DNA of 64,000 nucleotides, from positions 1,416-65,415 of the IMG/VR virus record IMGVR_UViG_2808606757_000001; one strand, 5' to 3'. The notes beneath the pieces are model-generated. The model was not told the DNA's origin. It searched no databases and saw only the letters and a program-made list of their open reading frames with translations. Below are positions 18,501 to 60,058 of the stretch, piece by piece (within the stretch, counting starts at the first letter, position 1; each line of letters opens with the position of its first letter). The DNA is from a virus (taxonomy: Duplodnaviria; Caudoviricetes). Position numbers and translations under genes: made by a program.

Positions 18501-18623
18501 ATCTCCGTGGACGCTGGGCGGCAAAAAACACGCCCGTAATTCACCCAGACAGCCCCAAAAACCACCCAACGGGCCAACCCAATCGAAACCAGACCCGCAC
18601 CCCCCAACCAGAAAATCACCCAC

Positions 18624-19097
18624 ATGCCACCAGTCATGGACCGAAAATCCAGCACAGAACGCGCCGAACGCGCCTGGCGGCTCAGCCTCCGAGGACGCAC
18701 CTGGCAAGAAGTCGCCGACGCCGAGGGCTTCCGCTCCCGACAGTCCGCGCGAAAGGCCGTCGAGAAGTGGCTGCAGAAGAATCCCACCGACGACATCGAA
18801 CGCCTACGACGCGCCACCGGCGACAGCCTCACGATGGTCATCCATACGCTGCTCGACAGCCTGGAAGAGGCGCACGACGCAGGCCGGCATCGCGACGTCG
18901 CCGAGCTCGGCAAGGTCGTCCTCGATGGACTCGACAAGCGGGCCAAGCTGCAGGGACTGCACATCGCTGTCCCGACTGAGGTCAACGTGAACGTGCAGAC
19001 GATGACCGAGATCCTCACTGACACCCGCGCCCGGCTGCTCGATGCGATCGACGCCGAGGTGGTTCCGCTGCCAACCCCACAGGAGATCGAACGATGA
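18624..19097 (+). CDS. Terminase small subunit (N-terminal HTH)
   Basis: RAWRLSLRGRTWQEVADAEGFRSRQSARKAV, KRAKLQGL; upstream of terL; carries the late promoter motif. Confidence 0.65.
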   Translation: MPPVMDRKSSTERAERAWRLSLRGRTWQEVADAEGFRSRQSARKAVEKWLQKNPTDDIERLRRATGDSLTMVIHTLLDSLEEAHDAGRHRDVAELGKVVLDGLDKRAKLQGLHIAVPTEVNVNVQTMTEILTDTRARLLDAIDAEVVPLPTPQEIER

Positions 19098-19456
19098 CGA
19101 CCGTCGAGCAGATCAAGGCCGCGCGGAAGGCCGGCGTCACGGCCGCCATGTCGGTGGCGCAGGACATCGCTGAGGGCAAGGTCGACACCGCCCAGCTCGA
19201 CGACGCCGTGGCCGCCGAGTGCCGGACGCTGTTCGGGCGCGTCGAGGGCCCGGGTGATCCGTTGTGGGAGCTGCAGGTCGATGTCGCCCGCCAGGTGCTC
19301 GCTGTGGGTGGTGGGGTGTCGTCGGTGGAGCTGGCGGAGTGGACCGCGGTGTACCGGGCCGCTGAGGGTGTGGAGGCCGCGCCGGCCGGGTCGTGGATCG
19401 AGGACGCGCTGGCGCAGTTCGACGAGGACGAGGGTGTCTCAGAACTAGGGAACTGA
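19094..19456 (+). CDS. Hypothetical protein
   Basis: Coupled to terS; RBS AGGAG. Confidence 0.7.
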   Translation: MTTVEQIKAARKAGVTAAMSVAQDIAEGKVDTAQLDDAVAAECRTLFGRVEGPGDPLWELQVDVARQVLAVGGGVSSVELAEWTAVYRAAEGVEAAPAGSWIEDALAQFDEDEGVSELGN

Positions 19457-19560
19457 GAGGGTGCGCCGAGTGCGCGTCTGAGCGAGGTGTTCCCGCTGGT
19501 CGCCCGTCTCAAAACTAGTTGCGTATCAATATTGTGTATCGAAACATTTTGAGATAAACT
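19436..19560. promoter_or_regulatory. Putative res site and promoter of the resolvase operon
   Basis: GTCTCA(G/A)AACTAG at 19436 and 19506; inverted TCTCAG/CTGAGA (19437/19453) and TCTCAAAA/TTTTGAGA (19507/19547); AT-rich; -10 TAAACT at 19555. Confidence 0.6.
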
Positions 19561-19566
19561 CGTGCC

Positions 19567-19785
19567 ATGACCACAATCCAGCTCCCCCGCCTCATCGCCT
19601 CGAACCACGCCGAGGCTGTCGCGGTCCTCCGTGAGCGCCGCGGCATCCTGCTGCAGGCCGCTGCCGACCTGTGCGACCGCGCCGAGCTGTTCGTCGGCAC
19701 CCCCGAGGTGTGCGACGAGATCCTGGCCGAGGCTCGGGCGCTTTTCGCCCAGGCTGAGCGTCACGCCCCCAAGGGGGCGGCGTGA
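19567..19785 (+). CDS. Small hypothetical protein (leaderless)
   Basis: TAAACT-N6-ATG; coupled to the resolvase. Confidence 0.6.
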   Translation: MTTIQLPRLIASNHAEAVAVLRERRGILLQAAADLCDRAELFVGTPEVCDEILAEARALFAQAERHAPKGAA

Positions 19786-20357
19786 CCGGCCAGCTGCTCG
19801 GCTACGCCCGGGTCTCCACCGACCACCAGACCCTCATCCAACAGACCGACGCGCTCACCGCGGCCGGAGTCGAGGCAGATCGGATCTACAGCGACAAGCT
19901 GTCTGGCGCGTCGTCGCGGGAGCAGCGTCCCGGACTAGATGCGCTGCTGAACTACGCCCGCGAGGACGACGTGATCGTTGTCGTCGGCATCGACCGCCTG
20001 GGCCGCAACGCCGCCGAGGTCATGATGACGATTCGGGACCTCGGAGTCCGGGGCATCGTGTTGCGCTCCCTGCGGGAAGGCATCGACACCTCGACCGCGA
20101 CCGGCCGCATGATCGCCGGAGTGTTCGCGTCCCTGGCCGAGCTGGAGTTGGAGTTGCAGCGGGAACGGCGCGCGGCGGCGATCGCGGCCCGGAAGGCGCG
20201 GAACATGCCGGTCGGCCGGCCTCGGGTGTTGAGTGGCGATAAGGTGGCGCTGGCGAAGCGGATGCGTGATGCGGGGGAGCCGATGCCGATCATTGCCGAG
20301 ACGCTCGGGGTGTCACGTGCGACGCTCTACCGGACGCTCGCGGAAGGCGGCGAGTGA
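19782..20357 (+). CDS. Small serine recombinase (resolvase/invertase family)
   Basis: GYARVST catalytic Ser, RPGL, DRLGR, E-ELQRER, C-terminal HTH IAETLGVSRATLYR. Confidence 0.95.
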   Translation: MTGQLLGYARVSTDHQTLIQQTDALTAAGVEADRIYSDKLSGASSREQRPGLDALLNYAREDDVIVVVGIDRLGRNAAEVMMTIRDLGVRGIVLRSLREGIDTSTATGRMIAGVFASLAELELELQRERRAAAIAARKARNMPVGRPRVLSGDKVALAKRMRDAGEPMPIIAETLGVSRATLYRTLAEGGE

Positions 20358-21741: not shown

Positions 21742-22080
21742 ATGACAATGAGCACAAAGCATGAGGCCCGTTCGGTCGACAAGGACGTCGATGTCGAGGA
21801 TTGGCTGGACAACCTGGACGTCAACCCGGGTGATGCACGTGACGCCCGGCATATGCGCCGTATCACCGCAGCGGCAACCGCGCTCGCGGACGCTGAGTCT
21901 GAACTGATCGCGGCGGTGGCCGACGCTCGTCGGGCAGGCGATACCTGGGCGATGGTCGGCACCGCGTTGGGGATCAGTCGGCAGGCCGCGTATCAGCGGT
22001 TCGGTAAGCAGTCGGTCGCCGGTCCGATTGGCGCCGGTCCGACTTTGGCGTCGTTCGTGCGTGATGCGCCGCTGTGCTGA
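21742..22080 (+). CDS. Putative antitoxin with C-terminal HTH
   Basis: Acidic N-terminus; [31 protein letters not shown]. Confidence 0.7.
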
Positions 22081-22094
22081 CCTGGGTTCTGATC

Positions 22095-22141
22095 ACCGGG
22101 GCGTGACACTCTTCGCGGGTGTCCGCCCCGGTTTCGTTTTT
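22095..22141 (+). terminator. Intrinsic terminator after the TA operon
   Basis: ACCGGGGCG..GACAC/GTGTC..CGCCCCGGT hairpin followed by TTCGTTTTT. Confidence 0.75.
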
Positions 22142-22229
22142 GAGCCGGTGCACGTGCTGTCCGTAGTTTTCGTGGTGCGCCCAGGTGGGGTGCGAACTCT
22201 TGTTTCCTCACCGATAGAGAGGCGCGTTC

Positions 22230-22421
22230 ATGCAGCGTATTGAGATTGGCCGTTACCCGGTTCCTGCTGAGGGTTGGGCTGGGTATGTCGAGGGCACTCG
22301 TGACGATGGCAGTACGTGGGTGATGTTCCTCGATGAGTCGGGGAGTCCGGCGCAGTTCTACGGTCGGCGTGAGCCGGATGGTGCTGTGGTGGGTGATCCG
22401 GTGGTGCTCACCCCGGCCTGA
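22230..22421 (+). CDS. Hypothetical protein
   Basis: RBS GAGAGG; 63 aa. Confidence 0.55.
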   Translation: MQRIEIGRYPVPAEGWAGYVEGTRDDGSTWVMFLDESGSPAQFYGRREPDGAVVGDPVVLTPA

Positions 22422-22434
22422 CACCCTCGCCGGC

Positions 22435-22692
22435 ATGGACACAGGCCCCGACCGAATCCGTGCGGCGATCGAACGGGATCGAGGGATGGCGGCGCCCGAG
22501 GTGCGAGTCGAGGTCTGTGTTCCCGGCTGCTGTGGAGGGGGCTCGCCTGCAGTTGCCGTGCCTGGGTATCCGGAGACGAAGCGTCGCCTAGGTGACAGGG
22601 TGTTGGGTTCGCTGGTGTGCCCGGCGTGTTTCCGGTTGCGGTTCAGTCCGATTCATCTGTTGGTGCGGATGGTTGGCATCTGCGATGGGTGA
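22435..22692 (+). CDS. Cys-rich hypothetical protein preceding terL
   Basis: Late promoter motif CAC-N10-CACCCT-N7-ATG; overlaps the terL start. Confidence 0.5.
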   Translation: MDTGPDRIRAAIERDRGMAAPEVRVEVCVPGCCGGGSPAVAVPGYPETKRRLGDRVLGSLVCPACFRLRFSPIHLLVRMVGICDG

Positions 22693-24226
22693 TGCGTTTC
22701 GGCTGTTGGTCGCGGCGCGGGCGGTGGCTGCGGTGCGCAGGTCGCGGCGTCCGTCGTCGCCGGCGGAGTTGGCCAGGCGGTTGGACCCGAAGTTCCGTGT
22801 GACGCCGACGATCAGGTTGCTGTCCGATGTCGCGGTGCGGTCGATCACTGAGCCTGATCAGCGTGACGATGTGAATACGCCGCCGCGGACGGGTAAGTCG
22901 GAGCTGCTGGCTGTGTGGACTCCGGTGTGGGCGTTGATTCCTGATCCTGGGTTGCCGATGAAGGGCCCGGATATGCAGATCGTGATCATTTCGAATGGTG
23001 ACGATCTGGCGCAGGAGCATTCCCGGAAGGTCCGGGAGATCATCAAGGAGCACTCGGATTACCTGGGGTACCGGATCGCGCTGGATAAGACGGCGGTTGG
23101 TCGGTGGCGGGTGGAGGGCTGCAAGGGCGGCATGTTGGCAGCCGGTATCAATTCGCACATCGTTGGTTTCGGTGCGGATTTGATGATCCTGGATGACGTC
23201 GTGGGCGGTATGGCGGAGGCTGACTCGGCGGCGCATCGTCGGCGGGTGCTGGGGGAGTATCAGGGTTCGTTGTCGACTCGTGTGCATCCGGGCGGCAGCG
23301 TGATTCTGGTGATGACGCGTTGGCATGAGGAGGATTTGGCGGGCGCGTTGTTGAAGCAGGAGCCGGATCGGTGGACGTGCACGAATGTGCCCGCGGTCAG
23401 TGAGTCGGGTGTTCCGGACGCGTTGGGGCGGCCGCCGGGTGTGACGATGATCAGCGCGTTGGGGTTCACGCCGCTTGACTATCAGCGTCGGCGTCGGGCG
23501 GTGGGTGAACGTATGTGGTACGCGCAGTATCAGGGTGTGCCTCGGAACCCGGCTGGCGGTTTGGTGAAGCAGCCATGGTTGGACGATTGGCGGTTGCCGG
23601 TGGCTCCGTCGTCGCCGGTGTTCACGGTGGTTGCGGTCGACCCCAGCGATTCAGGCAAGGGCGACAGCTGTGGCCTGGTGGCCACGTCGATGACTGCTGG
23701 TGGTGTGGTGGCGATGATCGCGGATAAGTCGGCGCCGATGACGTCGGATGAGTGGGCGCGCGAGGCGGTCCGGTTGGCGATCGACGTTGGGGCGTCGCAG
23801 ATCACGGTGGAGGGTTTCGCGGCCCGGGAGACCTACACGCGGGTGGTCAACGAGGCGTTGGAGCGGGCCCGGATCCGGCACCTGACCACGACGGGGCAGG
23901 TGTTGCACCCGATTCGGGTGACGTCGTGGCCGCCGAAGGGTCGGCCGCGGGTGGGGGATGCGATCGCCAGGAGCTCGGCGCTGCTGCAGGCGCTCGAAGT
24001 CGGTACGTGCCGCCTGGCTGGGTACTTCCCGGAGTTTGAGGCGCGGGCGATTGCGTGGCAGGCGGGGCAGCATCAGCCGGACTCGCTGGCTGCGTTGGTG
24101 ATTGGCCATGACGAGTGTGTGCACTCGGCGGGCATGGAGTGGGACCTGGCCGCGCCGCTGGATGAGCCGCCGGCGGGTGGCGGGTCAGTGACCTCGATGG
24201 AGTGGTGGCGCCAGCAAGTCGGCTGA
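22685..24226 (+). CDS. terL: Terminase large subunit
   Basis: Walker A PPRTGKS, Walker B LMILDD, coupling motif MTRWH, nuclease VAVDPS and HQPD. Confidence 0.95.
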   Translation: MGDAFRLLVAARAVAAVRRSRRPSSPAELARRLDPKFRVTPTIRLLSDVAVRSITEPDQRDDVNTPPRTGKSELLAVWTPVWALIPDPGLPMKGPDMQIVIISNGDDLAQEHSRKVREIIKEHSDYLGYRIALDKTAVGRWRVEGCKGGMLAAGINSHIVGFGADLMILDDVVGGMAEADSAAHRRRVLGEYQGSLSTRVHPGGSVILVMTRWHEEDLAGALLKQEPDRWTCTNVPAVSESGVPDALGRPPGVTMISALGFTPLDYQRRRRAVGERMWYAQYQGVPRNPAGGLVKQPWLDDWRLPVAPSSPVFTVVAVDPSDSGKGDSCGLVATSMTAGGVVAMIADKSAPMTSDEWAREAVRLAIDVGASQITVEGFAARETYTRVVNEALERARIRHLTTTGQVLHPIRVTSWPPKGRPRVGDAIARSSALLQALEVGTCRLAGYFPEFEARAIAWQAGQHQPDSLAALVIGHDECVHSAGMEWDLAAPLDEPPAGGGSVTSMEWWRQQVG

Positions 24227-24258
24227 GGTCACGGTCTGGGCTGTGGGATGCTCGCGGC

Positions 24259-24564
24259 GTGGAGTCGGACAACACTGAGCAGGTGGCGATCGCGGATCTA
24301 CGCGAGGGCGACGTGGTGCTCCATCCGGAGCGTGAGATGTGGATGCGGGTGCACCGGGTGCGCGACTTTCCGGAGACGGAGCACAAGTTTGAGCAGGGCA
24401 AGTGGCAGCATAAGGAGCGGTCGCTGCGTCGGATCACGCTCGATCCGGTGCATCGGGAGCCGTACGAGATGTTCATTCCGTTCGATCTCGACTACCGCGA
24501 CGCAGAGCAACTGACAATGATCACGCGCTGGACGGGTGGGGAGTTGCCGCGCCAGGCGTACTGA
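24259..24564 (+). CDS. Hypothetical protein
   Basis: IADLREGDVV beta-rich start; fills the intergenic gap. Confidence 0.6.
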   Translation: MESDNTEQVAIADLREGDVVLHPEREMWMRVHRVRDFPETEHKFEQGKWQHKERSLRRITLDPVHREPYEMFIPFDLDYRDAEQLTMITRWTGGELPRQAY

Positions 24565-24597
24565 GCGGCGTCACCGCCTGGGCGTACTTTCCCGGGC

Positions 24598-24969
24598 ATG
24601 GCCTCGGAAACCATCGACTACGTGAATCATCCGCCGCACTACCGGCACCCGTCCGGTATCGAGTGCATCGCGTTCACGCGGCACCTCTCGTTCGACGCTG
24701 GCAACGCGTTCAAGTACGTGTGGCGCGCCGGCGCGAAGAACGGACGGCAGGATCTCGAAAAGGCGCGCTGGTATCTGCTGGATGCGATCGAGCACGCGGA
24801 CGCGCCGTTCCTGCGGTCGTGGAACTTCACTGTCGAGTGTCGGCTGGCCGTGGTCATGGAGTACGAGACAGATCGCGACCGGCGCGTGTTCTTCGACGCG
24901 ATGAAGCGCGGCGACGTGGGCCGGGCGCTGGACGCGGTCAACGCGATGCTCGGCGAGGTTCTCGACTGA
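24598..24969 (+). CDS. DUF3310-type protein
   Basis: DYVNHPPHY...GIECI...GNAFKYVWRAGAK...DLEKARWYL. Confidence 0.9.
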   Translation: MASETIDYVNHPPHYRHPSGIECIAFTRHLSFDAGNAFKYVWRAGAKNGRQDLEKARWYLLDAIEHADAPFLRSWNFTVECRLAVVMEYETDRDRRVFFDAMKRGDVGRALDAVNAMLGEVLD

Positions 24970-25223
24970 TGACCGCGCCGGCTCGGGTGGATGATCGGCT
25001 GGCTGGGTTGCCGGACACGGCGTTGGCTCTGGCGTTGGGTATGTCGGTGGCGAAACCTTCGGCGTCGCATGTGGGTCGGGTGTCGGCGCTCGTCGACGAG
25101 CTGGCTCGGCGCGGGGTGCTCGACGTGATGCTGGCGGCGTTGGGCCCAGAGTTGGCGGCGTCGATCCAGTTGGCGGCCAGGGCGGATCGCGGGCAGTGCT
25201 GGGCCCGATCAGGCCGCGGCTGA
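24969..25223 (+). CDS. Hypothetical protein
   Basis: TGATG coupling. Confidence 0.55.
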   Translation: MTAPARVDDRLAGLPDTALALALGMSVAKPSASHVGRVSALVDELARRGVLDVMLAALGPELAASIQLAARADRGQCWARSGRG

Positions 25224-25243
25224 CGGATCGGCTCGGAGGAACC

Positions 25244-25399
25244 GTGAACAGATACGACGTAATCATCAATGTGATGAACGAGCACCGATGGTCGCATACA
25301 GCCGTCTTGCAGGGCGAATACTGCCGTTGCGGATTCAATGGTGACCATGACGACCACCTCGTGCTGTGCATCATGCGTGCGCTCGACGACCTGACGTAA
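25244..25399 (+). CDS. Small hypothetical protein
   Basis: RBS GGAGGAA; CRCG..H. Confidence 0.55.
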   Translation: MNRYDVIINVMNEHRWSHTAVLQGEYCRCGFNGDHDDHLVLCIMRALDDLT

Positions 25400-25508
25400 G
25401 TCGTCGCTACCGGTTTGCTGGCGACTCGTGACAAATGGTGCTTGCACCACGCTCCGGATCGGTTACATTGGCGGGCGTGACGTTGCTCAGCATCGAGGAC
25501 CCCAGGGC

Positions 25509-26093
25509 TTGACCGGCCCGCAGAGGTGGGAACCGGACGCGCAGATGGTCGCGGCCGTCCTGTCGATGCCGAAAGCGTCCCGCAAGATGACCGAGCTGTC
25601 CGACGCGGACCGTTCCTGGCTCGTCGCCGGCCTGACGCTGGCCGGGGTGACAGCCCAAGACATCGCCGACCGGTTGTCGTGCTCGCTGCGGCTCGTGCGC
25701 GCGATCCGGGCCGAGGACATGACACAGATGGCGGTCGTGGCGCAGGACGAAACCCGCAGGCTCGGTGACGAACTGCGGAGCGAGCGTTGCGATCACTCAG
25801 TGACGCGCCGCGAGTTGGCGGAGTCGCGACGGGAGGCCGACAGGCTGAGGCGGCAGCTCGACCAGGTCGTCACTAAGATGGCCAACGAGGAGCCGGTCGC
25901 GAAGTGCTATCGGGGCCATGCGCTTGTCGGTGACAACGTGTACCGTCACAGCGGCCGCGACTACTGCCGGCAGTGCAACCGGGAGAACACCCTCGCGTAT
26001 CGCGAGCGCAAGCGTAAACGCGATGAACTGCAGCGTCATTCGATCGGTATGTCGCCAACAGTGCACACCGAGTCCGTAGCGTCCGCCTCATGA
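25509..26093 (+). CDS. HTH + coiled-coil + Cys/His Zn-finger protein; candidate late regulator
   Basis: GVTAQDIADRLSCSLRLVRAIR HTH; CYRGH...CRQC; start uncertain (TTG at 25509 proposed). Confidence 0.65.
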   Translation: MTGPQRWEPDAQMVAAVLSMPKASRKMTELSDADRSWLVAGLTLAGVTAQDIADRLSCSLRLVRAIRAEDMTQMAVVAQDETRRLGDELRSERCDHSVTRRELAESRREADRLRRQLDQVVTKMANEEPVAKCYRGHALVGDNVYRHSGRDYCRQCNRENTLAYRERKRKRDELQRHSIGMSPTVHTESVASAS

Positions 26094-26602
26094 GCCTCGG
26101 ATTCACCGCACCGCGACCGACAGAGCAACAGCGTCAGGCGAAACGCCTCGCGAAGATGAAGGCGCAGTTTGGTGTTTGCGACTCCGGGCACGTTCTCTCT
26201 CCGGAGAACACTCACTGGTTCGACCGCGACCGGTACTGCTCCATCTGCGTGGCGTCGGGCGCCGTAACGCCAAGCTCGCGTAGACGCGTCTACTTCATCA
26301 CCGATGGTTCCGGGCACGTGAAAATCGGCTCGGCTCGTGATGTTCGGGTTCGGCTTGAGGAACTGCAGATCGGCAACCCAGCGGAGCTGACGGTGCTCGC
26401 CGACCAACCTGGCGGGCTGCCGCGTGAGCGGGAGTTGCACCGGCGCTTCGCAGAGCATCGTGTTCGAGGTGAGTGGTTTCGGCTCCTCCCGGAGATCGTT
26501 GAGTACATCGCCAGCATTCCGAGTCGCGAGACGCACAAAGTGCCGGAATACGTTCAGATTCAACGGGACCTGATCAAGAAGCAGGAAGCGGTGACCCTAT
26601 GA
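26090..26602 (+). CDS. T5orf172/MUG113-type GIY-YIG protein with N-terminal Zn finger
   Basis: VYFI...VKIG...RLEELQIGNP...ERELHRRF...GEWF. Confidence 0.88.
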   Translation: MSLGFTAPRPTEQQRQAKRLAKMKAQFGVCDSGHVLSPENTHWFDRDRYCSICVASGAVTPSSRRRVYFITDGSGHVKIGSARDVRVRLEELQIGNPAELTVLADQPGGLPRERELHRRFAEHRVRGEWFRLLPEIVEYIASIPSRETHKVPEYVQIQRDLIKKQEAVTL

Positions 26603-27021: not shown

Positions 27022-27049
27022 ACACCCAGCTTGGTTACCGTCCTGACTC

Positions 27050-31690: not shown

Positions 31691-31693
31691 CCG

Positions 31694-31879
31694 ATGGCAT
31701 GTGCGTGCAGGGGCGGCGCCCGGGCGGGTGCTCGCACGGCTTCGGGTGCGACGGTGACGGGGTATCAGTACACCGCGCCGGACAAGTCGGTGAAGGTGTT
31801 CCTGACGAAGCTTGAGGCTGTTACGGAGCAGCGCCGTAACGGTGGCGGCACGATCAAACAGATGACCAGCGGCGCATAG
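31694..31879 (+). CDS. Small head-region protein
   Basis: MACACRGG start; followed by a terminator. Confidence 0.65.
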   Translation: MACACRGGARAGARTASGATVTGYQYTAPDKSVKVFLTKLEAVTEQRRNGGGTIKQMTSGA

Positions 31880-31892
31880 CCGTCCACGCTTC

Positions 31893-31922
31893 AAAGGCCC
31901 CGGGTTGACGCCCGGGGCCTTT
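31893..31922 (+). terminator. Intrinsic terminator
   Basis: AAAGGCCCCGGG-loop-CCCGGGGCCTTT. Confidence 0.8.
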
Positions 31923-32043
31923 CGCGTGCGAGGGGTGCTGCACCGTGCCTGCTTACCGTCCTGCGCCAGAGAGTTCCTGCTGGCTGCGGGCCGAGGGGCG
32001 ATCGACAGAACGAGAGTTTCACTCAGAAAACGAGGAGCACGAA

Positions 32044-33834: not shown

Positions 33835-33861
33835 CGGGTAGCCGGCGAATCGCATTGGACG

Positions 33862-33907: not shown

Positions 33908-33931
33908 TCCCGGTAGAGAGGACCGCACGCA

Positions 33932-36626: not shown

Positions 36627-36716
36627 TGCACCCTGCCCTCTTACTGTCCGAACTGCCTCGGGGAGAACAGAACCGACCGGCGCACTGTGCGCCTTGAGCA
36701 GGAGGAAGGCCAGCAC

Positions 36717-37775: not shown

Positions 37776-37789
37776 TAGCAGTCGAGCGG

Positions 37790-37827
37790 AACGCCCCGGG
37801 TGACTGGCCCCGGGGCGTTTCGTCATT
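37790..37827 (+). terminator. Intrinsic terminator after major tail
   Basis: AACGCCCCGGG-loop-CCCGGGGCGTT followed by TCGTCATT. Confidence 0.8.
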
Positions 37828-37863
37828 CCCGGAGACAGCACCCTGGCTGGTTACCGTGACCGC

Positions 37864-40186: not shown

Positions 40187-40221
40187 CTGGGGTTTGCACC
40201 GTGCGCGTGAATCCTGCGCGT

Positions 40222-40749: not shown

Positions 40750-40777
40750 ACGCACCCCGTATCGCTAGCTTGACCGC

Positions 40778-52014: not shown

Positions 52015-52205
52015 TTGGCGCGGCCATCGGCGCGCAGTTGGTAGACGCGTTGCTTGCTGACGCGCAGCACTGCGGCGACCTCCTGCCATGTGTGGCCCTC
52101 GTCGTCCATCGCGGTCGCGACGAGCTGGGCCAGTTCGCTGTCGAGACGAACGACCGTTTCCGTCCTCTCGGCGCGGTTGGCGGCGATCCGCTCGAAGGCT
52201 GTCAC
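51999..52205 (-). CDS. Small HTH protein (leaderless)
   Basis: GHTWQEVAAVLRVSKQRVYQL; minus-strand TACGCT-N7-GTG. Confidence 0.75.
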   Translation of the reverse strand: MTAFERIAANRAERTETVVRLDSELAQLVATAMDDEGHTWQEVAAVLRVSKQRVYQLRADGRANQTTS

Positions 52206-52348
52206 GCCGACGAGCGTAACAAAAATCGTTGCCTACAGCTGGTCAAACGTGATTAGACTGGGGGTGTATCTCAGACACCGCGTGGCGGGCTAACCGGCCT
52301 AGGAACCATCGGCCCGCCACGCGGCCCACCCCCATAGGAGGCTCAACC

Positions 52349-52645
52349 ATGTTACGTAGTGCCATCTCGGCGATCGCCGCAGTCTGCGCGATCACTCTCG
52401 TGGGATCACCCGCCGCAGCCGCTGAACCCACCGACAAGGGTGCCACCACGCGGTCTGCTCACGAGGACGCGCCGAAAAAGATCACGATCGCAGCACCCAA
52501 GCCTCCCACCTGGAATGGCCCCAAGTTGCACAAGCAGCGCACCAGCGACCTGCGCGCCGGTAGCCCAGTTGAGGACTGGCGGATCGCCCGCAAGCGCACC
52601 ATGGATCGCTACTTCGGCGACCTCTGGTCGGGAACCCACCACTAG
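52349..52645 (+). CDS. Small secreted protein
   Basis: RBS AGGAGG; signal peptide ending PAAAA. Confidence 0.7.
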   Translation: MLRSAISAIAAVCAITLVGSPAAAAEPTDKGATTRSAHEDAPKKITIAAPKPPTWNGPKLHKQRTSDLRAGSPVEDWRIARKRTMDRYFGDLWSGTHH

Positions 52646-52657
52646 CCCCGGCCATGC

Positions 52658-52683
52658 AAGGCCCTCGGGAAACCGGGGGCCTT
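52658..52683. terminator. Hairpin between convergent genes
   Basis: AAGGCCCTCGG-GAAA-CCGGGGGCCTT. Confidence 0.7.
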
Positions 52684-52685
52684 CG

Positions 52686-52988
52686 TCATTCCACGTTCTG
52701 CCACGTCTTGCGGTGCACGATGTGGCACACCGACTTACCCGACACCCCGAATTGTTTGGCCAGCTCGCGCTGGCTGTAGTTACCCGTCGCGTACATGTGG
52801 CGAATCTCCCGCACAGATTCGGGCGTCAGGACATGAAACGCGGGCAACCTACGCTGACTGTAGACACGGTTAGCCCGGCGATAGTGGCTCTTGCACAGGC
52901 CCTTTGCCTTGTGTGGCCCATCCCCGTAGTGACACAAGCCCTCTGCTAGGTGCGCCCCGTCGCACCCTTCGATCGTGCATTTCCCCAC
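52686..52988 (-). pseudogene. HNH-endonuclease-like relic (Zn finger + HTH, nuclease core absent)
   Basis: CTIEGC...GLCKSHY joined directly to LTPESVREIR...SQRELAKQFGVS...RKTW. Confidence 0.55.
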
Positions 52989-53071
52989 CTGGTAGATGGT
53001 GCCACCAGCTACTTGCTTTTGTTAAGAGGCTGAACGATTTCCTGCACGTCAGGGCCGTTGAATGACGGCCG

Positions 53072-54211
53072 ATGTCGTGGTCCGACGAACTTGTCCAGCT
53101 CGCCCGCACGATCCCCCGGGGATGGTTCGGCGACGTCGTCGCGTCCGAGGCCCCGGAGCCGCCCGTCGGCTGGTGGTCTGTCCTCACGCTCGACTTCGCG
53201 CACACAGTCGCGTGGGTCACCGAGATGGAGCTGCAGGCGCTCCAACAGCTGGGGATCGTGCATAGCGTCCACGCCACCCAGGCCTTGGCGCTGCGAGCGT
53301 TGTACAAGCTGAACATCAGCCAACCCACTGCCGTGACCAACACAGTTGGGCTGCAGGGCATCTACATGCTGGACCACGCACTGTCGGTCGCCGTCAACCA
53401 GGCTTTCAACCTCGCCAAGCTTATCCCCGGCGTGGCCTTCACCCACGCACTGAACATCAACGGTCTGCTCACACTGCAGAAGATCCGGGCCGTCGACTTG
53501 CCGCACGCTGTCTACGCCGACCACACGTTGAGCTTCGCCAAGGTTCGAAACCTCAACATCGCCCAGACGATCGCCGCCAACCACAACCTCGACGTGGCCA
53601 AGATCCGCACGATCGCTGTTGCCCAAAACGTCGCCGTCAGCCACAACTTCGAGATCGGATTCCCCAGCACCGGCCTGCCCGCACGCGCCGAATTCGGCAC
53701 CCCCGGTCCCTACAGCTATGTCTTTCCCCGCAACTGCGTTTTCATCGATCGGATCGTGCTCGGCGGCGGTCAGGGCGGCTCAGGCGCTACGTTCTTGGCA
53801 GCCAACGGCGGCAACGCTGGAGTCTTCGCTTGGGACACAGTCCAACGTGGTGTCGACTTCTCCTACTTCGAAACCGCCATTACCGGCACAGTAGGTGACG
53901 GCGGCAACGGGGGCAGTGCCGGAACTGACGGAAGCGCTGGCCAAGCAACCACTGCCACCATCAACGGCAATACACTGACCGGCGCTGGCGGTCCCACAGG
54001 ATCGAGCGGTGGGCAAACCGGTGACGCTGTGTCATCTGGGAACACCAATGGCAACAAAGATCTGCTTTTCAACGGTCAGACGTATGTCGGCGGCGCCGCG
54101 TCGACCACCACCACCGCCAACACACCCGGATCAGGTGGCAGAGGTGGCAATTCATTCAGCAGCGGCAGCAAAGGCGGACGCGGGCAAGCCTGGTTCTATG
54201 CACGCCAGTAA
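53072..54211 (+). CDS. Minor tail protein with glycine-rich C-terminal domain
   Basis: D.IVLGGGQGGSG...GG.GG..GG.GQAWFYARQ. Confidence 0.8.
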   Translation: MSWSDELVQLARTIPRGWFGDVVASEAPEPPVGWWSVLTLDFAHTVAWVTEMELQALQQLGIVHSVHATQALALRALYKLNISQPTAVTNTVGLQGIYMLDHALSVAVNQAFNLAKLIPGVAFTHALNINGLLTLQKIRAVDLPHAVYADHTLSFAKVRNLNIAQTIAANHNLDVAKIRTIAVAQNVAVSHNFEIGFPSTGLPARAEFGTPGPYSYVFPRNCVFIDRIVLGGGQGGSGATFLAANGGNAGVFAWDTVQRGVDFSYFETAITGTVGDGGNGGSAGTDGSAGQATTATINGNTLTGAGGPTGSSGGQTGDAVSSGNTNGNKDLLFNGQTYVGGAASTTTTANTPGSGGRGGNSFSSGSKGGRGQAWFYARQ

Positions 54212-54226
54212 GCCACGATCAGCACC

Positions 54227-54610
54227 GTGACCGTCGGCATCACCGCATATCTGGCGAACAAGCTGCTAGATCACGTCTTTCGCAACGTGACCTACGCGCC
54301 GCCAGCCATCGTGTACTTCAAAGCGCACACCGGTGACCCCGGCGCCGCCGGAACCGCCAACCCGTCATCGAACGCCACCCGCTACGCCCTCACGTTCGGC
54401 GCCGCGTCCTCCGGCCAGATCGCCATCACCGCCTACCCAGAACACACCCTCAGCGGCAGCGAAACCATCTCCCACGGCTCCATCTGGGACCACCCCACAG
54501 CGGGCAACTGCTTGATCACCGGGCAAGCCACCGTCAGCAAGGCAGGCATCAGCGGCGACATCATCCGCCTCGCCTCCGACGTCATCAGCCTCACACCCAT
54601 CGCGACATAA
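54227..54610 (+). CDS. Minor tail protein
   Basis: LANKLLDHV...HTGDPGAAGTAN...WD..T.GN.L. Confidence 0.8.
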   Translation: MTVGITAYLANKLLDHVFRNVTYAPPAIVYFKAHTGDPGAAGTANPSSNATRYALTFGAASSGQIAITAYPEHTLSGSETISHGSIWDHPTAGNCLITGQATVSKAGISGDIIRLASDVISLTPIAT

Positions 54611-54624
54611 GGAGAACCATCGGA

Positions 54625-54978
54625 ATGATGTCGGCAACCGAATGGGCCGTCGCGTGGGAAGTCGCCAGCCTGCCACCGGAAGTGGTGCCAGCTGCACCCG
54701 TTCCACCTGTCCCGCCCAGCGACCCGGACGACACCGAAGCTGCCCAGGCATACGCACAGGCCCAGCAGGACTACCAGGTAGCCGTCGATATGGTCTACCA
54801 CGACATCAACACGCTGCTGGCCAACGACGAGTACTGGCAGGACACACTGTCGCTGTTCGCCGATGAGGCTGAGGCCCGGGCAATGCTGCCACGTCTTATC
54901 TCGGCGAACGCGTCGAACCAGTTCACCCGCAACTTTCGGGTCGTCTACTCGGCGCCCCGCGTGTGGACCCCGGCCTGA
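54625..54978 (+). CDS. Hypothetical tail-associated protein
   Basis: RBS AAGGAG. Confidence 0.7.
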   Translation: MMSATEWAVAWEVASLPPEVVPAAPVPPVPPSDPDDTEAAQAYAQAQQDYQVAVDMVYHDINTLLANDEYWQDTLSLFADEAEARAMLPRLISANASNQFTRNFRVVYSAPRVWTPA

Positions 54979-55075
54979 CCATGCGCCTCGCCCTGGCCGC
55001 CACGATCGTCGTCACCGTGCTGGCCTGGGCTGCGCTGCGCCCCATCCCTCAGGTCGATACGCTCGCGGCGTTCTG

Positions 55076-55219
55076 ATGTGGTGGCACCAGGTCATCCTGG
55101 TGTTCATCCTCGGTGCGCTCACGGGTGGGTGGGCAGCGACGATGGCCGTCATGACCGGCAGCTATCACCCAGAGCAGCCCGGCAACGGCCCACCCCAGCA
55201 TCGCACCCGAGCTCCGTAA
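55076..55219 (+). CDS. Small membrane protein
   Basis: MWWHQVILVFILGALTGGW; preceded by another 31-aa hydrophobic ORF at 54981-55076. Confidence 0.5.
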   Translation: MWWHQVILVFILGALTGGWAATMAVMTGSYHPEQPGNGPPQHRTRAP

Positions 55220-55229
55220 CCTCCCGACC

Positions 55230-55874
55230 GTGCCGATCACGGAGTACACCGAGCCGAACGTCTGCATCGGGGAAAACCTCACCACCGACGACGCCGGCCA
55301 ACTCCGCCTGCAACCGTGGGCCGTGCCCCGCCTCGTGGCGGACGTGCGGGCGATGGCCGCCGACGGGGACCGCAAGGTGTACCCGCAGATCACGCTCCCC
55401 GGCAAGCTGCTGATCGATCAGAAGCTCTACTGGCGCAACGACTCCCCGCTACCAGCCACGATGCTGATCCGCGTCACCCGCGGCCCCCGCTACTGGCTCA
55501 CGTCGAATCCGAACGCGATCCAGTTCCGGGACCGCTGGACCTACGCCCGCGACGCCGAACCAGCAGAACCGTTGACCACCAGCATTTTCAACGGCCAAAC
55601 CGGCTCCGCGATCGACATCGGCACCAACAGCGTGGCCGAGCCGAACCCCGGTCAGCAGTGGATGTGGACCGACGTCAACACCACCGACGAGTGGGTGCCG
55701 TACGAGATCGAGCCGAATCAGCAGTTCGCGATGTGGTACCGCTGCTACGTCTGGACGCCACCACCGTGGAGCGATAACGCGAACAAGAACTCCCCGAAGC
55801 ATGAGGCCGCCGCGTCGTGGGCGCGACTGTCGCTCATGGCATATGGACAGCAGGGAAGTGTGGTGACCGGATGA
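55230..55874 (+). CDS. Minor tail protein (paralog 1)
   Basis: W.N.SP...VTR motif. Confidence 0.75.
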   Translation: MPITEYTEPNVCIGENLTTDDAGQLRLQPWAVPRLVADVRAMAADGDRKVYPQITLPGKLLIDQKLYWRNDSPLPATMLIRVTRGPRYWLTSNPNAIQFRDRWTYARDAEPAEPLTTSIFNGQTGSAIDIGTNSVAEPNPGQQWMWTDVNTTDEWVPYEIEPNQQFAMWYRCYVWTPPPWSDNANKNSPKHEAAASWARLSLMAYGQQGSVVTG

Positions 55875-56025
55875 CGCGGCCAGGACGGGAATGGATGGCG
55901 CCTCCTGGATCAGGTGCGCCGATGTGGCCGGGACAGGACTGCCCGAGCTGCGGCGCGGCGCTGTCGGAGGCGGGCAAGCACAAGGTGTGCGGAGCCGGGT
56001 GTGGTCATCGGCAGGCGGTGCCGCA

Positions 56026-56625
56026 GTGAGCATCAAGGTCTGCACCAGCGAGTACATGCTGAGCACCGTCGACGGGCTCGACATGCGCCGCGCCTGGTTC
56101 CCCCGCGTCGTCGCCGAAGCGTTCCTCGAGTCGACCAAGGACGGCACGATCTCGCGCGCCCCCGATCCGGTCACGATGATCGACGGCGACGTGACATGGT
56201 TCAACAACAGCCCGGACCCGCAAGTCGTTGCGCTGCAAGTCACCCGGGCGCCGCGCACCATCGTCGCGCAGAACCCCGGCACCGTCGTCATCCACGACGC
56301 CTGGTCGGCAGCCAAAGGTGTCTCCCCGGTCGCTGATTACCCGTCCGTCACACAGGATGCGTTCGGTGGCCGCGCACAGATCGACCGGCCCGAAGCATCC
56401 GCCGAGAACCTGTTGTTCGGCCGGCTGTTCCTCGACGGCGACTCCACCCAGGCCATGGTGCCGATCGGCGTGCTGCCGCCGAAGCATTCGATGCACTTCC
56501 GGTACGTCTGCTCCGTCCAGACACCCGGGACCTGGACCAGCCCATCAGAATTCGAGTCACGGATGGAGGCGCACGCACGCTGGACACGGCTCGTCGCGCT
56601 GGCTTCACCGGTGGGGGCACAGTGA
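56026..56625 (+). CDS. Minor tail protein (paralog 2)
   Basis: WFNNSP...VTRAPR...NP. Confidence 0.75.
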   Translation: MSIKVCTSEYMLSTVDGLDMRRAWFPRVVAEAFLESTKDGTISRAPDPVTMIDGDVTWFNNSPDPQVVALQVTRAPRTIVAQNPGTVVIHDAWSAAKGVSPVADYPSVTQDAFGGRAQIDRPEASAENLLFGRLFLDGDSTQAMVPIGVLPPKHSMHFRYVCSVQTPGTWTSPSEFESRMEAHARWTRLVALASPVGAQ

Positions 56626-57917
56626 GCAACGACCACTTCCTGATCCTCGACGAAGCGATCGAGCCGCAACCCTGGACCCAATACCGGATCCTCGCCACCA
56701 AGACAGCGCCGTCGGTGTCCAAGTCGTACGACACCTCCGGCGGCAGCAACAAAGACGAGCTGGTGCACACCGTCGACGTGCAGTGGACGAACAACACCCC
56801 GCTCCACCAAGCCGTCTACGGCACCGTCACCCGGGGCGGCGCCCAAGTCACCCTCCAAGCACGGTCACGCGGCTACCTGCAGATGTTGCACGGCGTCGAC
56901 AAGCTCAACACCCCAACACCGCCCACCAGCTTCGACATGATCGAGGTATCCCGGTTCGGAGGCGGCATGGACGTCGGCAAGGGCGGAATCCTCGCCGTCG
57001 GAACCGGCTTCGGTGTGCACGAGGTCCGCAAAAACTCCAGCACCGCGCCCCTCATGCCGCACTCCGTCGGCTGGGAAACCGTCGCGCCGGGGGAGACGTT
57101 CTTCGCCCGCGTCCAAATCCGATTCAAGTCGGAATACTGGGAACAAACCACCATCGACGGCGGCGACCAGAACACCGAGTCGCTGTTCATCTCCGGCGAC
57201 ACCCGGGTGGACCTGTACGGCATCCCCGCGTTCGCCCCGCCGGCCGGACGGTCACTCCCCACCGTTGTGGGTGTCGAGCACTCCACCAACAACACGTTCC
57301 CCACCGACGTCGACGTGCCCGCCGGCACCGCGGCCGGTGACGTGATGGTCGCGATCGTCGCCAACAACATCGGGCTCGCATCCGACATCACCCCATCCGA
57401 GACCGGTTGGACCCAATGGCATGTCCGCAACGACGGACTGCTGGGCATCGCCGACGTCCACATGAAGGTCTATTGGCGCATCGCGACCGCGGCCGAGCCG
57501 GCGTCGTATCACTTCACCACCGGCGCCCTGGCCGAGGAGATCGTCCAGCTCATCGTTCTGCGTGACGCCTCAACGGATCTCACCGAATGGCATGTGTCGT
57601 CGTCGTTGAGTAAGCGGTTCTGGGAACGTGACACCGGCGCCAACATGTGCCCGAGCATCGACCGCGCGGGGCAACTGTTGATCTGCGCGTCCTACGTCGC
57701 GCACACGCCGCTGCAGGCACCGATCAACCAGACTCCGCCCGACGGCATGACTGAGCTCGAGGACGTCGACGCAGAGGGCTGCACAATGGCCTCCGCCGTG
57801 CTGCCCAACCCGCCACGCCCCACGCTGGACCGCGGGTTCGCCCCGTCCAAGGTGCCGCAGTGGTCCGGCCGTTCGATCGCCCTGTCGATCCTGGTGCCCG
57901 GGAAAGTGACCATCTGA
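56622..57917 (+). CDS. Minor tail protein (paralog 3, extra C-terminal domain)
   Basis: WTNNTP...VTRG; VPAGTAAGDVMVAIV...VYWRIATAAEPASY. Confidence 0.75.
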   Translation: MSNDHFLILDEAIEPQPWTQYRILATKTAPSVSKSYDTSGGSNKDELVHTVDVQWTNNTPLHQAVYGTVTRGGAQVTLQARSRGYLQMLHGVDKLNTPTPPTSFDMIEVSRFGGGMDVGKGGILAVGTGFGVHEVRKNSSTAPLMPHSVGWETVAPGETFFARVQIRFKSEYWEQTTIDGGDQNTESLFISGDTRVDLYGIPAFAPPAGRSLPTVVGVEHSTNNTFPTDVDVPAGTAAGDVMVAIVANNIGLASDITPSETGWTQWHVRNDGLLGIADVHMKVYWRIATAAEPASYHFTTGALAEEIVQLIVLRDASTDLTEWHVSSSLSKRFWERDTGANMCPSIDRAGQLLICASYVAHTPLQAPINQTPPDGMTELEDVDAEGCTMASAVLPNPPRPTLDRGFAPSKVPQWSGRSIALSILVPGKVTI

Positions 57918-58594
57918 TGTGGGATCCGCCCAAGGGGATCGACGACATGCTGGGCGATGCCCAGCTGGTCCCGCCCTACGCCGGCGGATTCGCGAGCCTC
58001 ACGGTTCCGGACGTCGGCACGGTGCTGGCCCGCCGGCCCCGGCCCGACGCGGTGCCGTACTTGGCGATGTCGGTCAACCCTGACGTCGACCCGATGGTTC
58101 AGCAGCACTACGCAACGCTGTTCGTGCGCAACCACATCGAGCCCGCCGATCATGAGCGGATCTTGGCGGCCATGGTGGAGGACACCCTGCCGGACACCAC
58201 GATCGGGCATTTGGCCCGCGCGTTGGCCACCTGGGGCACTGCCCGCCCGTACGTCGCAGTGATGACCTTGGCCTATATGGCCGCGACGCACTGGCGCACA
58301 TTGCGAACCCGGATGCGCGGCGACGGGATCGCCGACCCCATGGCCGTGCTGCCATCGATGCACGACATCGCTGACGAAGCCGAGAAACTTTGGCTCGAAT
58401 CGATCCACACCGGCGATGACGCCAAGGACAAGCACGCGCAGGGCCAACTGTTCGACCAGCTCTACGCGCCCGACACCGCGGAGGCGAAGCAAGTCAACGC
58501 GAAGGGCTACAAGGGTGCTCGCCCGGCCGGGTTCGAACCGGGCGAGGTGGCGGCTGATTTCAAGGAGGCGGCACGAATGTTGGGTGCACGCTAG
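57917..58594 (+). CDS. Tail assembly chaperone-like protein (GT equivalent)
   Basis: N-terminal half aligns by eye with the 40222-40749 product; extra C-terminal domain. Confidence 0.6.
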   Translation: MWDPPKGIDDMLGDAQLVPPYAGGFASLTVPDVGTVLARRPRPDAVPYLAMSVNPDVDPMVQQHYATLFVRNHIEPADHERILAAMVEDTLPDTTIGHLARALATWGTARPYVAVMTLAYMAATHWRTLRTRMRGDGIADPMAVLPSMHDIADEAEKLWLESIHTGDDAKDKHAQGQLFDQLYAPDTAEAKQVNAKGYKGARPAGFEPGEVAADFKEAARMLGAR

Positions 58595-58612
58595 GTCCAT
58601 AACCTGCGCGGC

Positions 58613-59023
58613 ATGACGGACCAGATCATCGTGGGCTACGACCCGTCGAAACCGGCGGGTGAGCGGCTCGCGCCGGAGGTCCGGGAGGAGATCGCCGAGG
58701 TAGCGCCGTCCACGCTGCTGAACGGTGCGGTCACCACGGCGAAATTGCGGGACGGTGCGGTATCCACCGCGAAGATCGCCGACGGCGCTGTCACCTCACC
58801 GAAGATCGGCACCGGCGAAGTCAAGACCGTCAACTTGGGCGACGGTGCAGTGACCACCGCCAAACTCGACAACGGCGCCGTCACCGCGGACAAGGCCGGC
58901 ACCGGCGTTGTGACCGCACGCAACAAGGACGGCGACCCGATCACCCTCACCGTCGTGCCGATCGCCGCAGCCGACTATGCCGCGATCACCAAGGACCCGA
59001 ACACCATGTACGCGGTGTACTGA
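58613..59023 (+). CDS. Fiber-like protein with 10-aa repeats
   Basis: GAVTTAKLxD-type unit repeated about six times. Confidence 0.8.
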   Translation: MTDQIIVGYDPSKPAGERLAPEVREEIAEVAPSTLLNGAVTTAKLRDGAVSTAKIADGAVTSPKIGTGEVKTVNLGDGAVTTAKLDNGAVTADKAGTGVVTARNKDGDPITLTVVPIAAADYAAITKDPNTMYAVY

Positions 59024-59733
59024 TGCCCCTCAACTTCGGTGGCACCCACCCGATTCAGGCGCTCAAGCTGGCCGATATCGACTTTCAGAAGTTGTGCCTG
59101 GGCTCCACGATCCTCTGGTCCAAGAGCAGCATCCGAATCAGCTTCGACGGCCCCGACGCCGCGACTCTCGGCGTTGACTGGGTCGACTACGGCCCGTCGA
59201 GCACGTACAAGGCCGGCATCGTCAACGGCCAATGCCGCCTGGCCATCCCGGACGGCCTGATCTCGCTGCCGCTGCTGACGAGCCGCCAGCGTTACAACGC
59301 CGCGCAGGCCCCGAACACGGACTACGAGTTGGAGTTCCGCGTCGGCTCGCAAGGTTCCGGCCCGTCCATCACTGGTGATCTGTCCAAGACTCAGGTGTTC
59401 GCCCGGGTGTCGAACACCGCGTTTACGCATGGTGTGGGTGTGCAGCTCGACTCGTCGACGTTGCGGATCGTGCGGCGGGTTTCCAACACCGACACCATCA
59501 TGCTCAACAACGGGGGCACATTCGCTGCCGGTGACACCATCAACCTCAAGGGCGTCGGCAACCTGCACACTCTGCGCCGCAACGGCTCCCGGGTCGGCGA
59601 GTGGCCCGACACCACTGGCACCGCGGCGTCGGGGCCCGGCTACAAGTCCCTCGGCGTGGTGGTGATGGGTTCCAAGGACCTGCTCGGGCCGCGCCGGTTC
59701 GGGCCGACGATCGACTGGGTTGAGCTCAACTAG
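59023..59733 (+). CDS. Minor tail protein (beta-sandwich)
   Basis: Coupled; SGPGYKSLG...IDW C-terminus. Confidence 0.7.
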   Translation: MPLNFGGTHPIQALKLADIDFQKLCLGSTILWSKSSIRISFDGPDAATLGVDWVDYGPSSTYKAGIVNGQCRLAIPDGLISLPLLTSRQRYNAAQAPNTDYELEFRVGSQGSGPSITGDLSKTQVFARVSNTAFTHGVGVQLDSSTLRIVRRVSNTDTIMLNNGGTFAAGDTINLKGVGNLHTLRRNGSRVGEWPDTTGTAASGPGYKSLGVVVMGSKDLLGPRRFGPTIDWVELN

Positions 59734-59764
59734 TCGTTGCACCCGGCGGGCCTACTTTCGCGCC

Positions 59765-60058
59765 GTGAACAAACTCCTCGCGGTGTTCGCATCGCTGCTG
59801 GCCAAAGCCTTGTTTGAGCAGGCCGTGGCCTATCTGAAGAACCCCGAGAACCGTGACGACATCGAGGACGCAACGCGTTTCGTGTTGGAGCGGGCCACCA
59901 GCGCGACTCCGTGGACGTGGGACGACCGGGCCGTCCGGCTGTTGGCCGACGCGCTCAGCGCCAAGATCCCAGGGCTCGACGGGCTCGGCGCCGCGGTGCA
60001 GCAGCTCCAGCGGCTCATCCGCAACCCCATCGATGGACTGCTGGGTGGTGGCCGGTGA
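59765..60058 (+). CDS. Hypothetical protein at the start of the lysis operon
   Basis: Late promoter motif; TPWTWDD. Confidence 0.65.
   Translation: MNKLLAVFASLLAKALFEQAVAYLKNPENRDDIEDATRFVLERATSATPWTWDDRAVRLLADALSAKIPGLDGLGAAVQQLQRLIRNPIDGLLGGGR

Follow-up and report, generated by a model that had tools for sequence, protein, structure and literature searches.

Late-gene expression is poorly defined in most mycobacteriophages. How the packaging, virion and lysis genes are expressed is the question raised by the window analysed here, a stretch of 64,000 nucleotides (nt) from a mycobacterial prophage (bases 1416-65415 of the 65,415-nt phage record IMGVR_UViG_2808606757_000001). Nearly all of the window genes lie on the + strand, the G+C content is 62-68%, and a short motif recurs in front of these genes: the trinucleotide CAC, mostly in the form (T)GCAC(C), followed after exactly 10 nt by a hexamer of the type nAnnnT or TAnnnT. 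A reading made from the sequence alone, which we refer to as the sequence-only reading, had listed 14 such sites and proposed that the late genes are served by one class of many small promoters. We conclude that the sites probably represent a phage-specific promoter class without a -35 element that gives rise to leaderless or short-leader late mRNAs. Such a promoter would consist of a -10 hexamer of the primary-sigma type (TAnnnT) and a fixed (T)GCAC(C) box at about -26 to -22.

The window DNA is ∼75% identical to the structural genes of the Mycobacterium phages Dori, Mao1, Mask and Sejanus and of M. abscessus prophages such as prophi88-1. For the comparisons we used Dori, Mao1, prophi88-1, prophiT46-2, a set of IMG/VR loci, the lytic Cluster B phages Cooper and Chah and the Gordonia phage AnClar, with the unrelated phage L5 as the control. 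The portal, capsid, major-tail, tape-measure and terminase genes were labelled by homology to annotated genes of relatives, and the labels of the head-tail adaptor, tail chaperone, minor tail, tail-fibre-like and endolysin genes were confirmed by PHROG and Pfam matches.

Thirteen of the 14 listed sites fit the pattern, with CAC at exactly 10 nt and with A and T at the second and sixth positions of the hexamer (A2 and T6). TAnnnT accounts for nine of these hexamers, and the remainder are GAAAAT, CACCCT, AATCCT and CACGAT. The fourteenth site (53045..53063, + strand, before the minor tail gene with ATG 53072) was rejected, as its TTGAAT is not an nAnnnT hexamer and it scores below 9 bits in the weight matrix described below. 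Two strong sites, at 16676 and 26064, had been missed. Across the 16 compiled sites T6 is present in all, A2 in 15 (the exception is the rejected site) and T1 in 12, while G precedes CAC in 13 cases and C follows it in 12. When sites and lineages are taken together, only T1, A2 and T6 are constant, the hexamers including TACCGT, TAGCTT, TAACCT, TACTTT and TAGTAT among others. We detected no conserved -35 box: none of the columns from -20 to -3 before CAC exceeded 0.4 bit. Canonical -35/-10 promoters (TTGACA-like, 16-18 nt spacer) were found 0 times in 22000-41999 and once in 42000-61999, compared to 1.9 and 2.4 expected. An extracytoplasmic function (ECF) type promoter (-35 GCAC, -10 CGTC) and a sigma-54 promoter (-24/-12) were considered and dropped, as a spacing of 10 nt agrees with neither.

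The enrichment over background that the sequence-only reading implied was borne out in shuffled sequences, in counts anchored at start codons and with a weight matrix. CAC-N10-TANNNT occurs 13 times in the window compared to 6.55 ± 2.41 expected, a number reached in 1 of 100 shuffles, and 12 of the 13 matches are on the + strand. For CAC-N10-nAnnnT-N6-8 directly upstream of ATG or GTG we counted 16 cases among 2241 such codons on the + strand and 3 among 1894 on the - strand. The + strand cases are concentrated at genes: 12 of the 95 curated + strand gene starts carry the motif versus 4 of the 2146 other ATG/GTG codons (odds ratio 77, Fisher p 2.7e-14). The spacing is equally well defined. Among the 99 nAnnnT-N6-8-RTG anchors on the + strand, CAC stands at spacer 10 in 15, with 0-4 occurrences at every other spacer from 0 to 27; on the - strand it stands at spacer 10 in 2 of 69 anchors. 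The same spacer test on relatives covered 8 of 32 loci. The weight matrix was trained on 36 sites from 5 loci of relatives only, and in the window it returned 12 matches of at least 12 bits on the + strand and 0 on the - strand, compared to 1.46 ± 1.17 (maximum 5, n=100) in random sequence. A matrix match at 47493 lies inside a gene and is a probable false positive.

In 12 cases the distance from the end of the hexamer to the ATG or GTG with which the gene begins is 6-8 nt. At this distance, a hexamer that holds only T1, A2 and T6 constant points to a primary-sigma -10 box for a leaderless transcript. At about 12 sites the first transcribed base would then be that of the ATG or GTG itself, and the leaderless mRNA would be translated without a Shine-Dalgarno (SD) sequence. 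We compared the predicted anti-SD duplexes of the motif genes with those of the other + strand genes, after four mechanical starts (16115, 40201, 22592, 31945) had been exchanged for curated ones. A duplex of -6 kcal/mol or better was found in 0 of 13 motif genes versus 44 of 82 other genes (Mann-Whitney p 3e-6). Late genes that are free of overlap with the gene before them are of two classes, having either a clear SD or the motif without SD. The start codons of the motif genes are 8 ATG, 5 GTG and 0 TTG. For mycobacteria, the available sections of Shell et al. 2015 (PMC4633059) describe an ATG or GTG at the 5' end as necessary and sufficient for leaderless translation, whereas TTG and CTG fail. 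The motif genes resemble the mycobacterial leaderless genes of that study in using ATG and GTG only and in having no SD; they differ in their fixed upstream box, which the same sections do not report for host promoters.

At three sites, those of the capsid gene, the major-tail gene and 16676, the motif is located 40-100 nt upstream of the start and is followed by a leader, which in the case of 16676 contains an SD of the AGGAG type. At these genes (capsid, major tail and one gene of the replication region) the same promoter would feed a leader instead of a leaderless mRNA. The far-upstream layout was kept in 18/18 unique orthologous sequences for the capsid gene and in 23/23 for the major-tail gene. 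Both leaders open with sequence that is conserved across distant relatives, CAGAGAGTTCCTG after the capsid site (31960-31985) and GCCTCGG(G)AGA after the major-tail site (36648-36675), and these conserved openings may be 5' stabilising or translation elements.

In Cluster K phages, start-associated sequences include a ribosome-binding site directly before start codons, and a role in translation has been proposed for them. The motif could likewise be a start-associated signal at the RNA level that recruits ribosomes to internal starts without an SD along one long late transcript, an idea which is favoured by the 6-8 nt distance to an SD-less start at 12 sites. We regard it as very unlikely. At the capsid and major-tail genes and at 16676 a leader intervenes and the motif is 40-100 nt away from the start; this arrangement is conserved, and the motif is better explained as a promoter than as a translation signal. 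Furthermore, conservation restricted to T1, A2 and T6 fits recognition by a sigma factor and not base pairing, and the box has no visible complementarity to the 3' end of the 16S rRNA. Unlike the Cluster K sequences with their ribosome-binding site, the motif contains no SD, and it is distant from the start at three genes.

The promoter reading is further supported by conservation across relatives. We counted motif-plus-start combinations on the + and - strands and obtained 11 and 1 for Dori, 10 and 0 for Mao1, 13 and 1 for prophi88-1 and 10 and 0 for prophiT46-2, at orthologous genes. Table 1 lists how often individual sites were kept; the footprint counts refer to unique sequences, exclude the L5 control locus and skip loci in which the gene is too near the locus edge. 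In the orthologous footprints the bases of the spacer and of the discriminator are free to vary, down to a protein identity of 36-48%. A scan of IMG/VR with the portal protein gave 27 loci at 45-84% identity, and the motif precedes the portal start in all of them. For one locus this holds after projecting the start to codon 1, as the tblastn match opens at query residue 15 and the printed upstream stretch began inside the gene. A scan of genome contigs with the portal protein alone gave no match.

The distant ones among these loci are Cluster B phages. In Cooper (70.7 kb) the strict CAC-N10-TANNNT pattern occurs 8 times and always on the + strand. Six of the occurrences precede the portal, capsid, major-tail, adaptor, endolysin and gp74 genes and the remaining two (8413, 53878) are within annotated genes. 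Chah (B1) and AnClar have the motif at the portal and adaptor genes, AnClar additionally at the major-tail and lysin A genes. We then considered all starts preceded by TAnnnT at the leaderless distance. CAC was found at N10 in 8 of 12 such anchors in the window, 10 of 13 in Dori, 5 of 15 in Cooper, 2 of 9 in Chah and 0 of 8 in L5, where none of the anchors is at an annotated start. In a 4.9-Mb Mycobacterium chromosome with a related prophage there were 25 strict matches versus 38 for a reversed-pattern control, N10 being the only spacing run, and 4 of the 25 are on one strand in or beside the related prophage (796104-812375); the window has 9 strict matches in 64 kb. On these comparisons the CAC box is a trait of the phage lineage and not of host promoters or phage promoters generally, since it is absent from L5 and shows no excess in the host chromosome. 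It is not needed everywhere, because many leaderless late genes of Chah and Cooper are without it.

An alternative that has to be weighed at this point is that the sites are ordinary host sigma-A promoters that work without a phage factor. The CAC would then be a core-promoter preference of the lineage or a hitch-hiker, and expression would be set by read-through and by a repressor acting elsewhere. The hexamer is indeed of the standard mycobacterial -10 type, many leaderless late genes of Chah and Cooper do without the CAC, and the reader of the box is still only a candidate. Nevertheless we consider this explanation unlikely, as the CAC survives large divergence at exactly N10 before the portal, capsid, major-tail and adaptor genes, the motif spans two host genera and the host chromosome shows no excess of it. 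A prophage would also need such promoters to be silent in the lysogen.

Several points weigh against our reading of the sites as phage-specific late promoters. Chah keeps the leaderless geometry and yet has CAC at only 2 of 9 anchors. The predicted promoter function and the predicted leaderless starts rest on geometry and conservation, and the gene starts come from our own codon-usage caller with hand edits and not from a validated annotation. That the genes are expressed late is a guess from gene function, and the sites 16676 and 18598 precede non-virion genes. With the matrix from the relatives, 5 of the 14 sites listed earlier remain below 12 bits (18598, 54201 and 53045 below 9 bits, 22409 and 40197 at ∼11 bits). 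A simple Gibbs sampler on 42 intergenic stretches missed the motif in 3/3 seeds. Finally, a simple terminator scan found no excess (8 vs 8.9 and 7 vs 9.4 expected), and read-through from upstream is possible.

The proposal that many small promoters of a single class are distributed over the packaging, virion and lysis genes held up, supported by the orthologous conservation, by hairpins and by the nature of the starts that lack CAC. Of the 12 window starts with a TAnnnT hexamer at the leaderless distance, 8 have CAC, all of them at packaging-region, virion or lysis genes, and 4 lack it, all of them at accessory or moron genes. GC-rich hairpins flank the capsid and major-tail genes (Table 1), and hence these genes, which encode the two most abundant virion proteins, look as if they were placed in separate transcription units.

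If the sites are promoters of this kind, a phage protein would be expected to read the CAC box. The sequence-only reading had put forward the phage WhiB, possibly together with the host WhiA, on the premise that these proteins act through an established GACAC box in the promoter spacer. That premise did not survive comparison with the literature: in the available sections of Lilic et al. 2023 (PMC10243135), the binding positions of WhiA and WhiB are upstream of the -35 and not in the spacer. For promoters activated through phage WhiB, with host WhiA reading the box, it can be said that the window, Dori and prophi88-1 encode WhiB and that WhiB-like proteins bind region 4 of sigma-A, as stated in the same sections. 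Nonetheless GACAC occurs in 0 of 16 boxes and the two bases before CAC are never GA. WhiA sites are described there (PMC10243135, available sections) as upstream of the -35, variably spaced and on either strand. The Whib family was found in 2 of 5 motif-bearing phage records (Dori and prophi88-1) and in none of Cooper, Chah and AnClar. We therefore judge this mechanism highly improbable. Promoters of the WhiA/WhiB type such as sepX, as far as they are covered in those sections, are like the sites in belonging to an actinobacterial sigma-A holoenzyme system, and sepX is leaderless; they are unlike them in that GACAC lies upstream of the -35 at a variable spacing, compared to GCACC at a fixed 10 nt from the -10.

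The other driver that had been named, a helix-turn-helix (HTH) protein at 25509, stays in place as a candidate, on its phyletic pattern only. The gene (25428-26093) encodes an HTH domain, a long coiled coil and a zinc (Zn) ribbon, and we refer to its product as the HTH/Zn protein. When every window protein was compared, this was the sole regulator-like protein common to the window, Cooper, Dori, Mao1 and prophi88-1; the counterparts are Dori gp5 and Cooper gp73, the latter with 35% identity. By tblastn it was found in 509 phage records, mostly of Mycobacterium phages and in some cases of Gordonia, Tsukamurella, Rhodococcus, Nocardia and Skermania phages. The predicted model (predicted local distance difference test, pLDDT, 91.5) shows a small HTH domain, a helix of ∼55 residues and a Zn ribbon. 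The HTH domain weakly resembles the LuxR/GerE and ECF sigma-4 domains (best Foldseek E 0.2-1). Searches for its family gave a Pfam HTH_23 match below the cut-off, no PDB profile match below E 0.01, only VIA-align matches below Z 8 and no usable match in the ESM Atlas. The protein is classed as HTH DNA-binding, with no further family. We also considered it as a full sigma factor and dropped this because the model is without a sigma-2-like domain. Its own gene has a canonical-looking promoter (TTGCAC-N16-TACATT, 25442-25469).

By co-occurrence only, the HTH/Zn protein is the best candidate for the reader of the CAC box. Its association with the motif is not independent evidence, since all phages that have both are kin. 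It is conceivable, if doubtful, that the protein is a dedicated late activator which reads GCACC inside the spacer (-26 to -22) and thereby replaces the missing -35 contact of host sigma-A. If so, this would be a new way of redirecting RNA polymerase, common to ∼500 actinobacteriophage records including Cooper, Chah and AnClar, in which most late genes would be leaderless by design.

Cluster A stoperators are bound by the immunity repressor of the prophage and are therefore restricted to temperate phages that possess it. If the motif were a repressor-binding site that blocks elongation in the lysogen in the manner of stoperators, numerous asymmetric sites of one orientation would also be expected in the short gaps between genes, as observed here. 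We give this possibility almost no weight: neither an integrase nor an immunity repressor is annotated in the records of Cooper, Chah and AnClar, all of which keep the motif, the operator-like word of the immunity region is a different one (TGACAARTG), and the fixed distance to the start codons would be left unexplained.

The exact word TGACAAATG occurs just 5' of the canonical promoter of the HTH/Zn gene (25429-25437) and again in the immunity region (1760-1768). Copies with one mismatch are found at 1360-1368 and 1402-1410, between the repressor-like and cro-like genes. It is possible that TGACAAATG is an operator linking the HTH/Zn gene to the prophage repressor, which is encoded at 344-1279 on the - strand; in total the word is not enriched (8 matches with at most one mismatch vs 6.97 expected).

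By analogy, and as far as the available sections of the preprint go, the nearest described system is that of the late promoters of the Thermus phages Lalka27a and phiYS40. For Lalka27a these sections (bioRxiv 10.64898/2026.04.20.719267) describe 16 predicted late promoters with a class-specific -10 (TAGGGT) and a conserved C at -25 in all but one. Most transcripts lack a leader and have the first base of the start codon, A or G, as their 5' end, and 5' ends have been mapped for about half of the promoters. With promoters this dense, the authors argue, antitermination becomes unnecessary, and they suspect a phage factor of altering the specificity of RNA polymerase (bioRxiv 10.64898/2026.04.20.719267). 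Going by these sections, the sites in the window are like the Thermus promoters in having a class-specific -10 and no -35, and the first C of CAC falls at -25 if the hexamer is placed at -12 to -7. They differ in the host, which belongs to the Actinomycetota and not to the Deinococcota, in the longer box (GCACC), in the looser hexamer (TAnnnT compared to TAGGGT) and in that the transcript starts are predicted only.

Among mycobacteriophages, the SigA-like promoters of Cluster O (Cresawn et al. 2015, PMC4351075) are similar in being predicted to be leaderless, the start codon's first base being +1. In the available sections of that paper they differ by their canonical -35/-10 elements with 17-bp (base pair) spacers, by their number of 8-9 and by lying mostly outside the virion genes. 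The same sections note that promoter prediction in mycobacteriophages is hard and that some promoters are unlike SigA promoters (PMC4351075). We found no description of the present motif in mycobacteriophages in the literature searched, which was mostly without subscription journals and supplements. Promoters of this kind are known; that a very large and much-used group of mycobacteriophages has them appears to be new.

If our reading of the sites as late promoters is correct, it yields a rule for late promoters that can be tested in Dori-like phages, M. abscessus prophages and Cluster B phages, names one candidate regulator and accounts for the many virion genes of these phages without a ribosome-binding site. 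The 25-nt element could also be used as a compact, infection-responsive promoter in mycobacterial genetics. Moreover, start-codon calls would be corrected, for example that of the Dori portal gene (TTG 3691), which is upstream of the predicted transcript start. This GenBank start and that of the Dori adaptor gene (GTG 14673) are both located inside the motif, and the prophi88-1 portal gene (30090) is annotated 168 nt downstream of the motif-adjacent GTG.

Table 1. Motif sites, hairpins and associated genes in the window. Scores are weight-matrix bits; counts in relatives are unique orthologous sequences or upstream regions.
Feature	Position	Strand	Hexamer, layout and remarks	Score	Relatives
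Gene for whiB	16086-16373	+	in C/A-rich stretch		
Site before HTH_17 gene, GTG 16737	16676..16694	+	∼40 nt 5' of SD and GTG	19.6	counterpart not seen in prophi88-1
HTH_17 gene	16737-16925	+	in C/A-rich stretch		
Replication-initiator-like gene	16925-17863	+	after HTH_17 gene		
Weak site before phrog_645 gene, ATG 18624	18598..18616	+	GAAAAT	<9	GAAAAT site also in prophi88-1 and related loci L006, L007
TAnnnT-leaderless starts without CAC, accessory/moron genes	19567, 21033, 21504, 39920		one with TTGACG -35, one with TACAAT hexamer		
Weak site before 85-amino-acid (aa) Cys-rich open reading frame (ORF), ATG 22435	22409..22427	+	CACCCT	11.0	
Site before DUF3310 gene, ATG 24598	24572..24590	+	TACTTT	13.4	orthologous sites in prophi88-1, prophiT46-2
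Gene for HTH / long coiled-coil / Zn-ribbon protein (phrog_928, unknown function)	25428-26093	+	database gene call for its protein: 182 aa		
Site before T5orf172/MUG113 nuclease-like gene, ATG 26090	26064..26082	+	within 3' end of HTH/Zn gene	14.9	
Site before portal gene, GTG 27050	27023..27041	+	CACC-N9-TACCGT, 8 nt to start, no SD	20.5	kept in 24/24 (34 loci)
Hairpin, 13 bp, GC-rich, then UUUCG, terminator-like	31893..31922	+	∼20 nt before capsid site; -41.5 kcal/mol for 31880-31940, z -5.35		
Site before major capsid gene, start 32044	31941..31959	+	TACCGT, ∼80-nt leader	22.0	18/18
Long hairpin directly after capsid stop codon	33861..33908	+	z -2.78		
Site before major tail gene	36629..36647	+	TACTGT, then leader	20.2	23/23
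Hairpin, 15 bp, between major-tail stop codon and adaptor site	37786..37823	+	z -3.38		
Site before head-tail adaptor gene (phrog_783), ATG 37864	37839..37857	+	TACCGT, 6 nt to start, no SD	21.5	18/19
Weak site before tail assembly chaperone gene, ATG 40222	40197..40215	+	AATCCT	11.3	CAC-N10-CACGCT in relatives
Site before tape measure gene, GTG 40778	40753..40771	+	TAGCTT	17.7	4/5
Weak site before head-protein-like gene, GTG 54227	54201..54219	+	CACGAT	<9	strong CACC-N9-TAGTAT at Dori orthologue
Site before phrog_282 gene, GTG 55230	55204..55222	+	TAACCT	15.8	orthologous sites in Dori, Mao1, prophi88-1, prophiT46-2
Site before tail-fibre-like gene, ATG 58613	58587..58605	+	TAACCT	16.6	orthologous sites in Dori, Mao1, prophages
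Site before first lysis-block gene, GTG 59765	59740..59758	+	TACTTT	16.0	similar site at lysin A of Dori, Cooper, AnClar
Endolysin-family genes of lysis block	60438, 61733		downstream of site 59740		

The region 15800-18700, which includes the whiB and HTH_17 genes, is C/A-rich with a strong negative GC skew. Its genes are still on the + strand, and their starts were set by hand. The gene following the site at 18598 (18624-19097) had been called terS in the sequence-only reading; this label was dropped, as the gene matches phrog_645 and no terminase family. It carries the label 'Rnase E', the same label as Cooper gp69.

The 85-aa Cys-rich ORF (22435-22692) sits between the site at 22409 and terL (start 22685), with which it overlaps by 8 nt. 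In the three related loci L006, L007 and L022 a site like the one at 22409 is located directly 5' of an ORF of 428-519 aa; the ORF of L006 is terL, and its product is 79% identical to that of the window terL over residues 1-519. The nuclease-like T5orf172/MUG113 gene (26090-26602) lies between the site at 26064 and a DUF1360 gene; in Dori the counterpart site directly precedes the DUF1360 gene. The nuclease-like gene looks like a mobile gene that was inserted right after the promoter.

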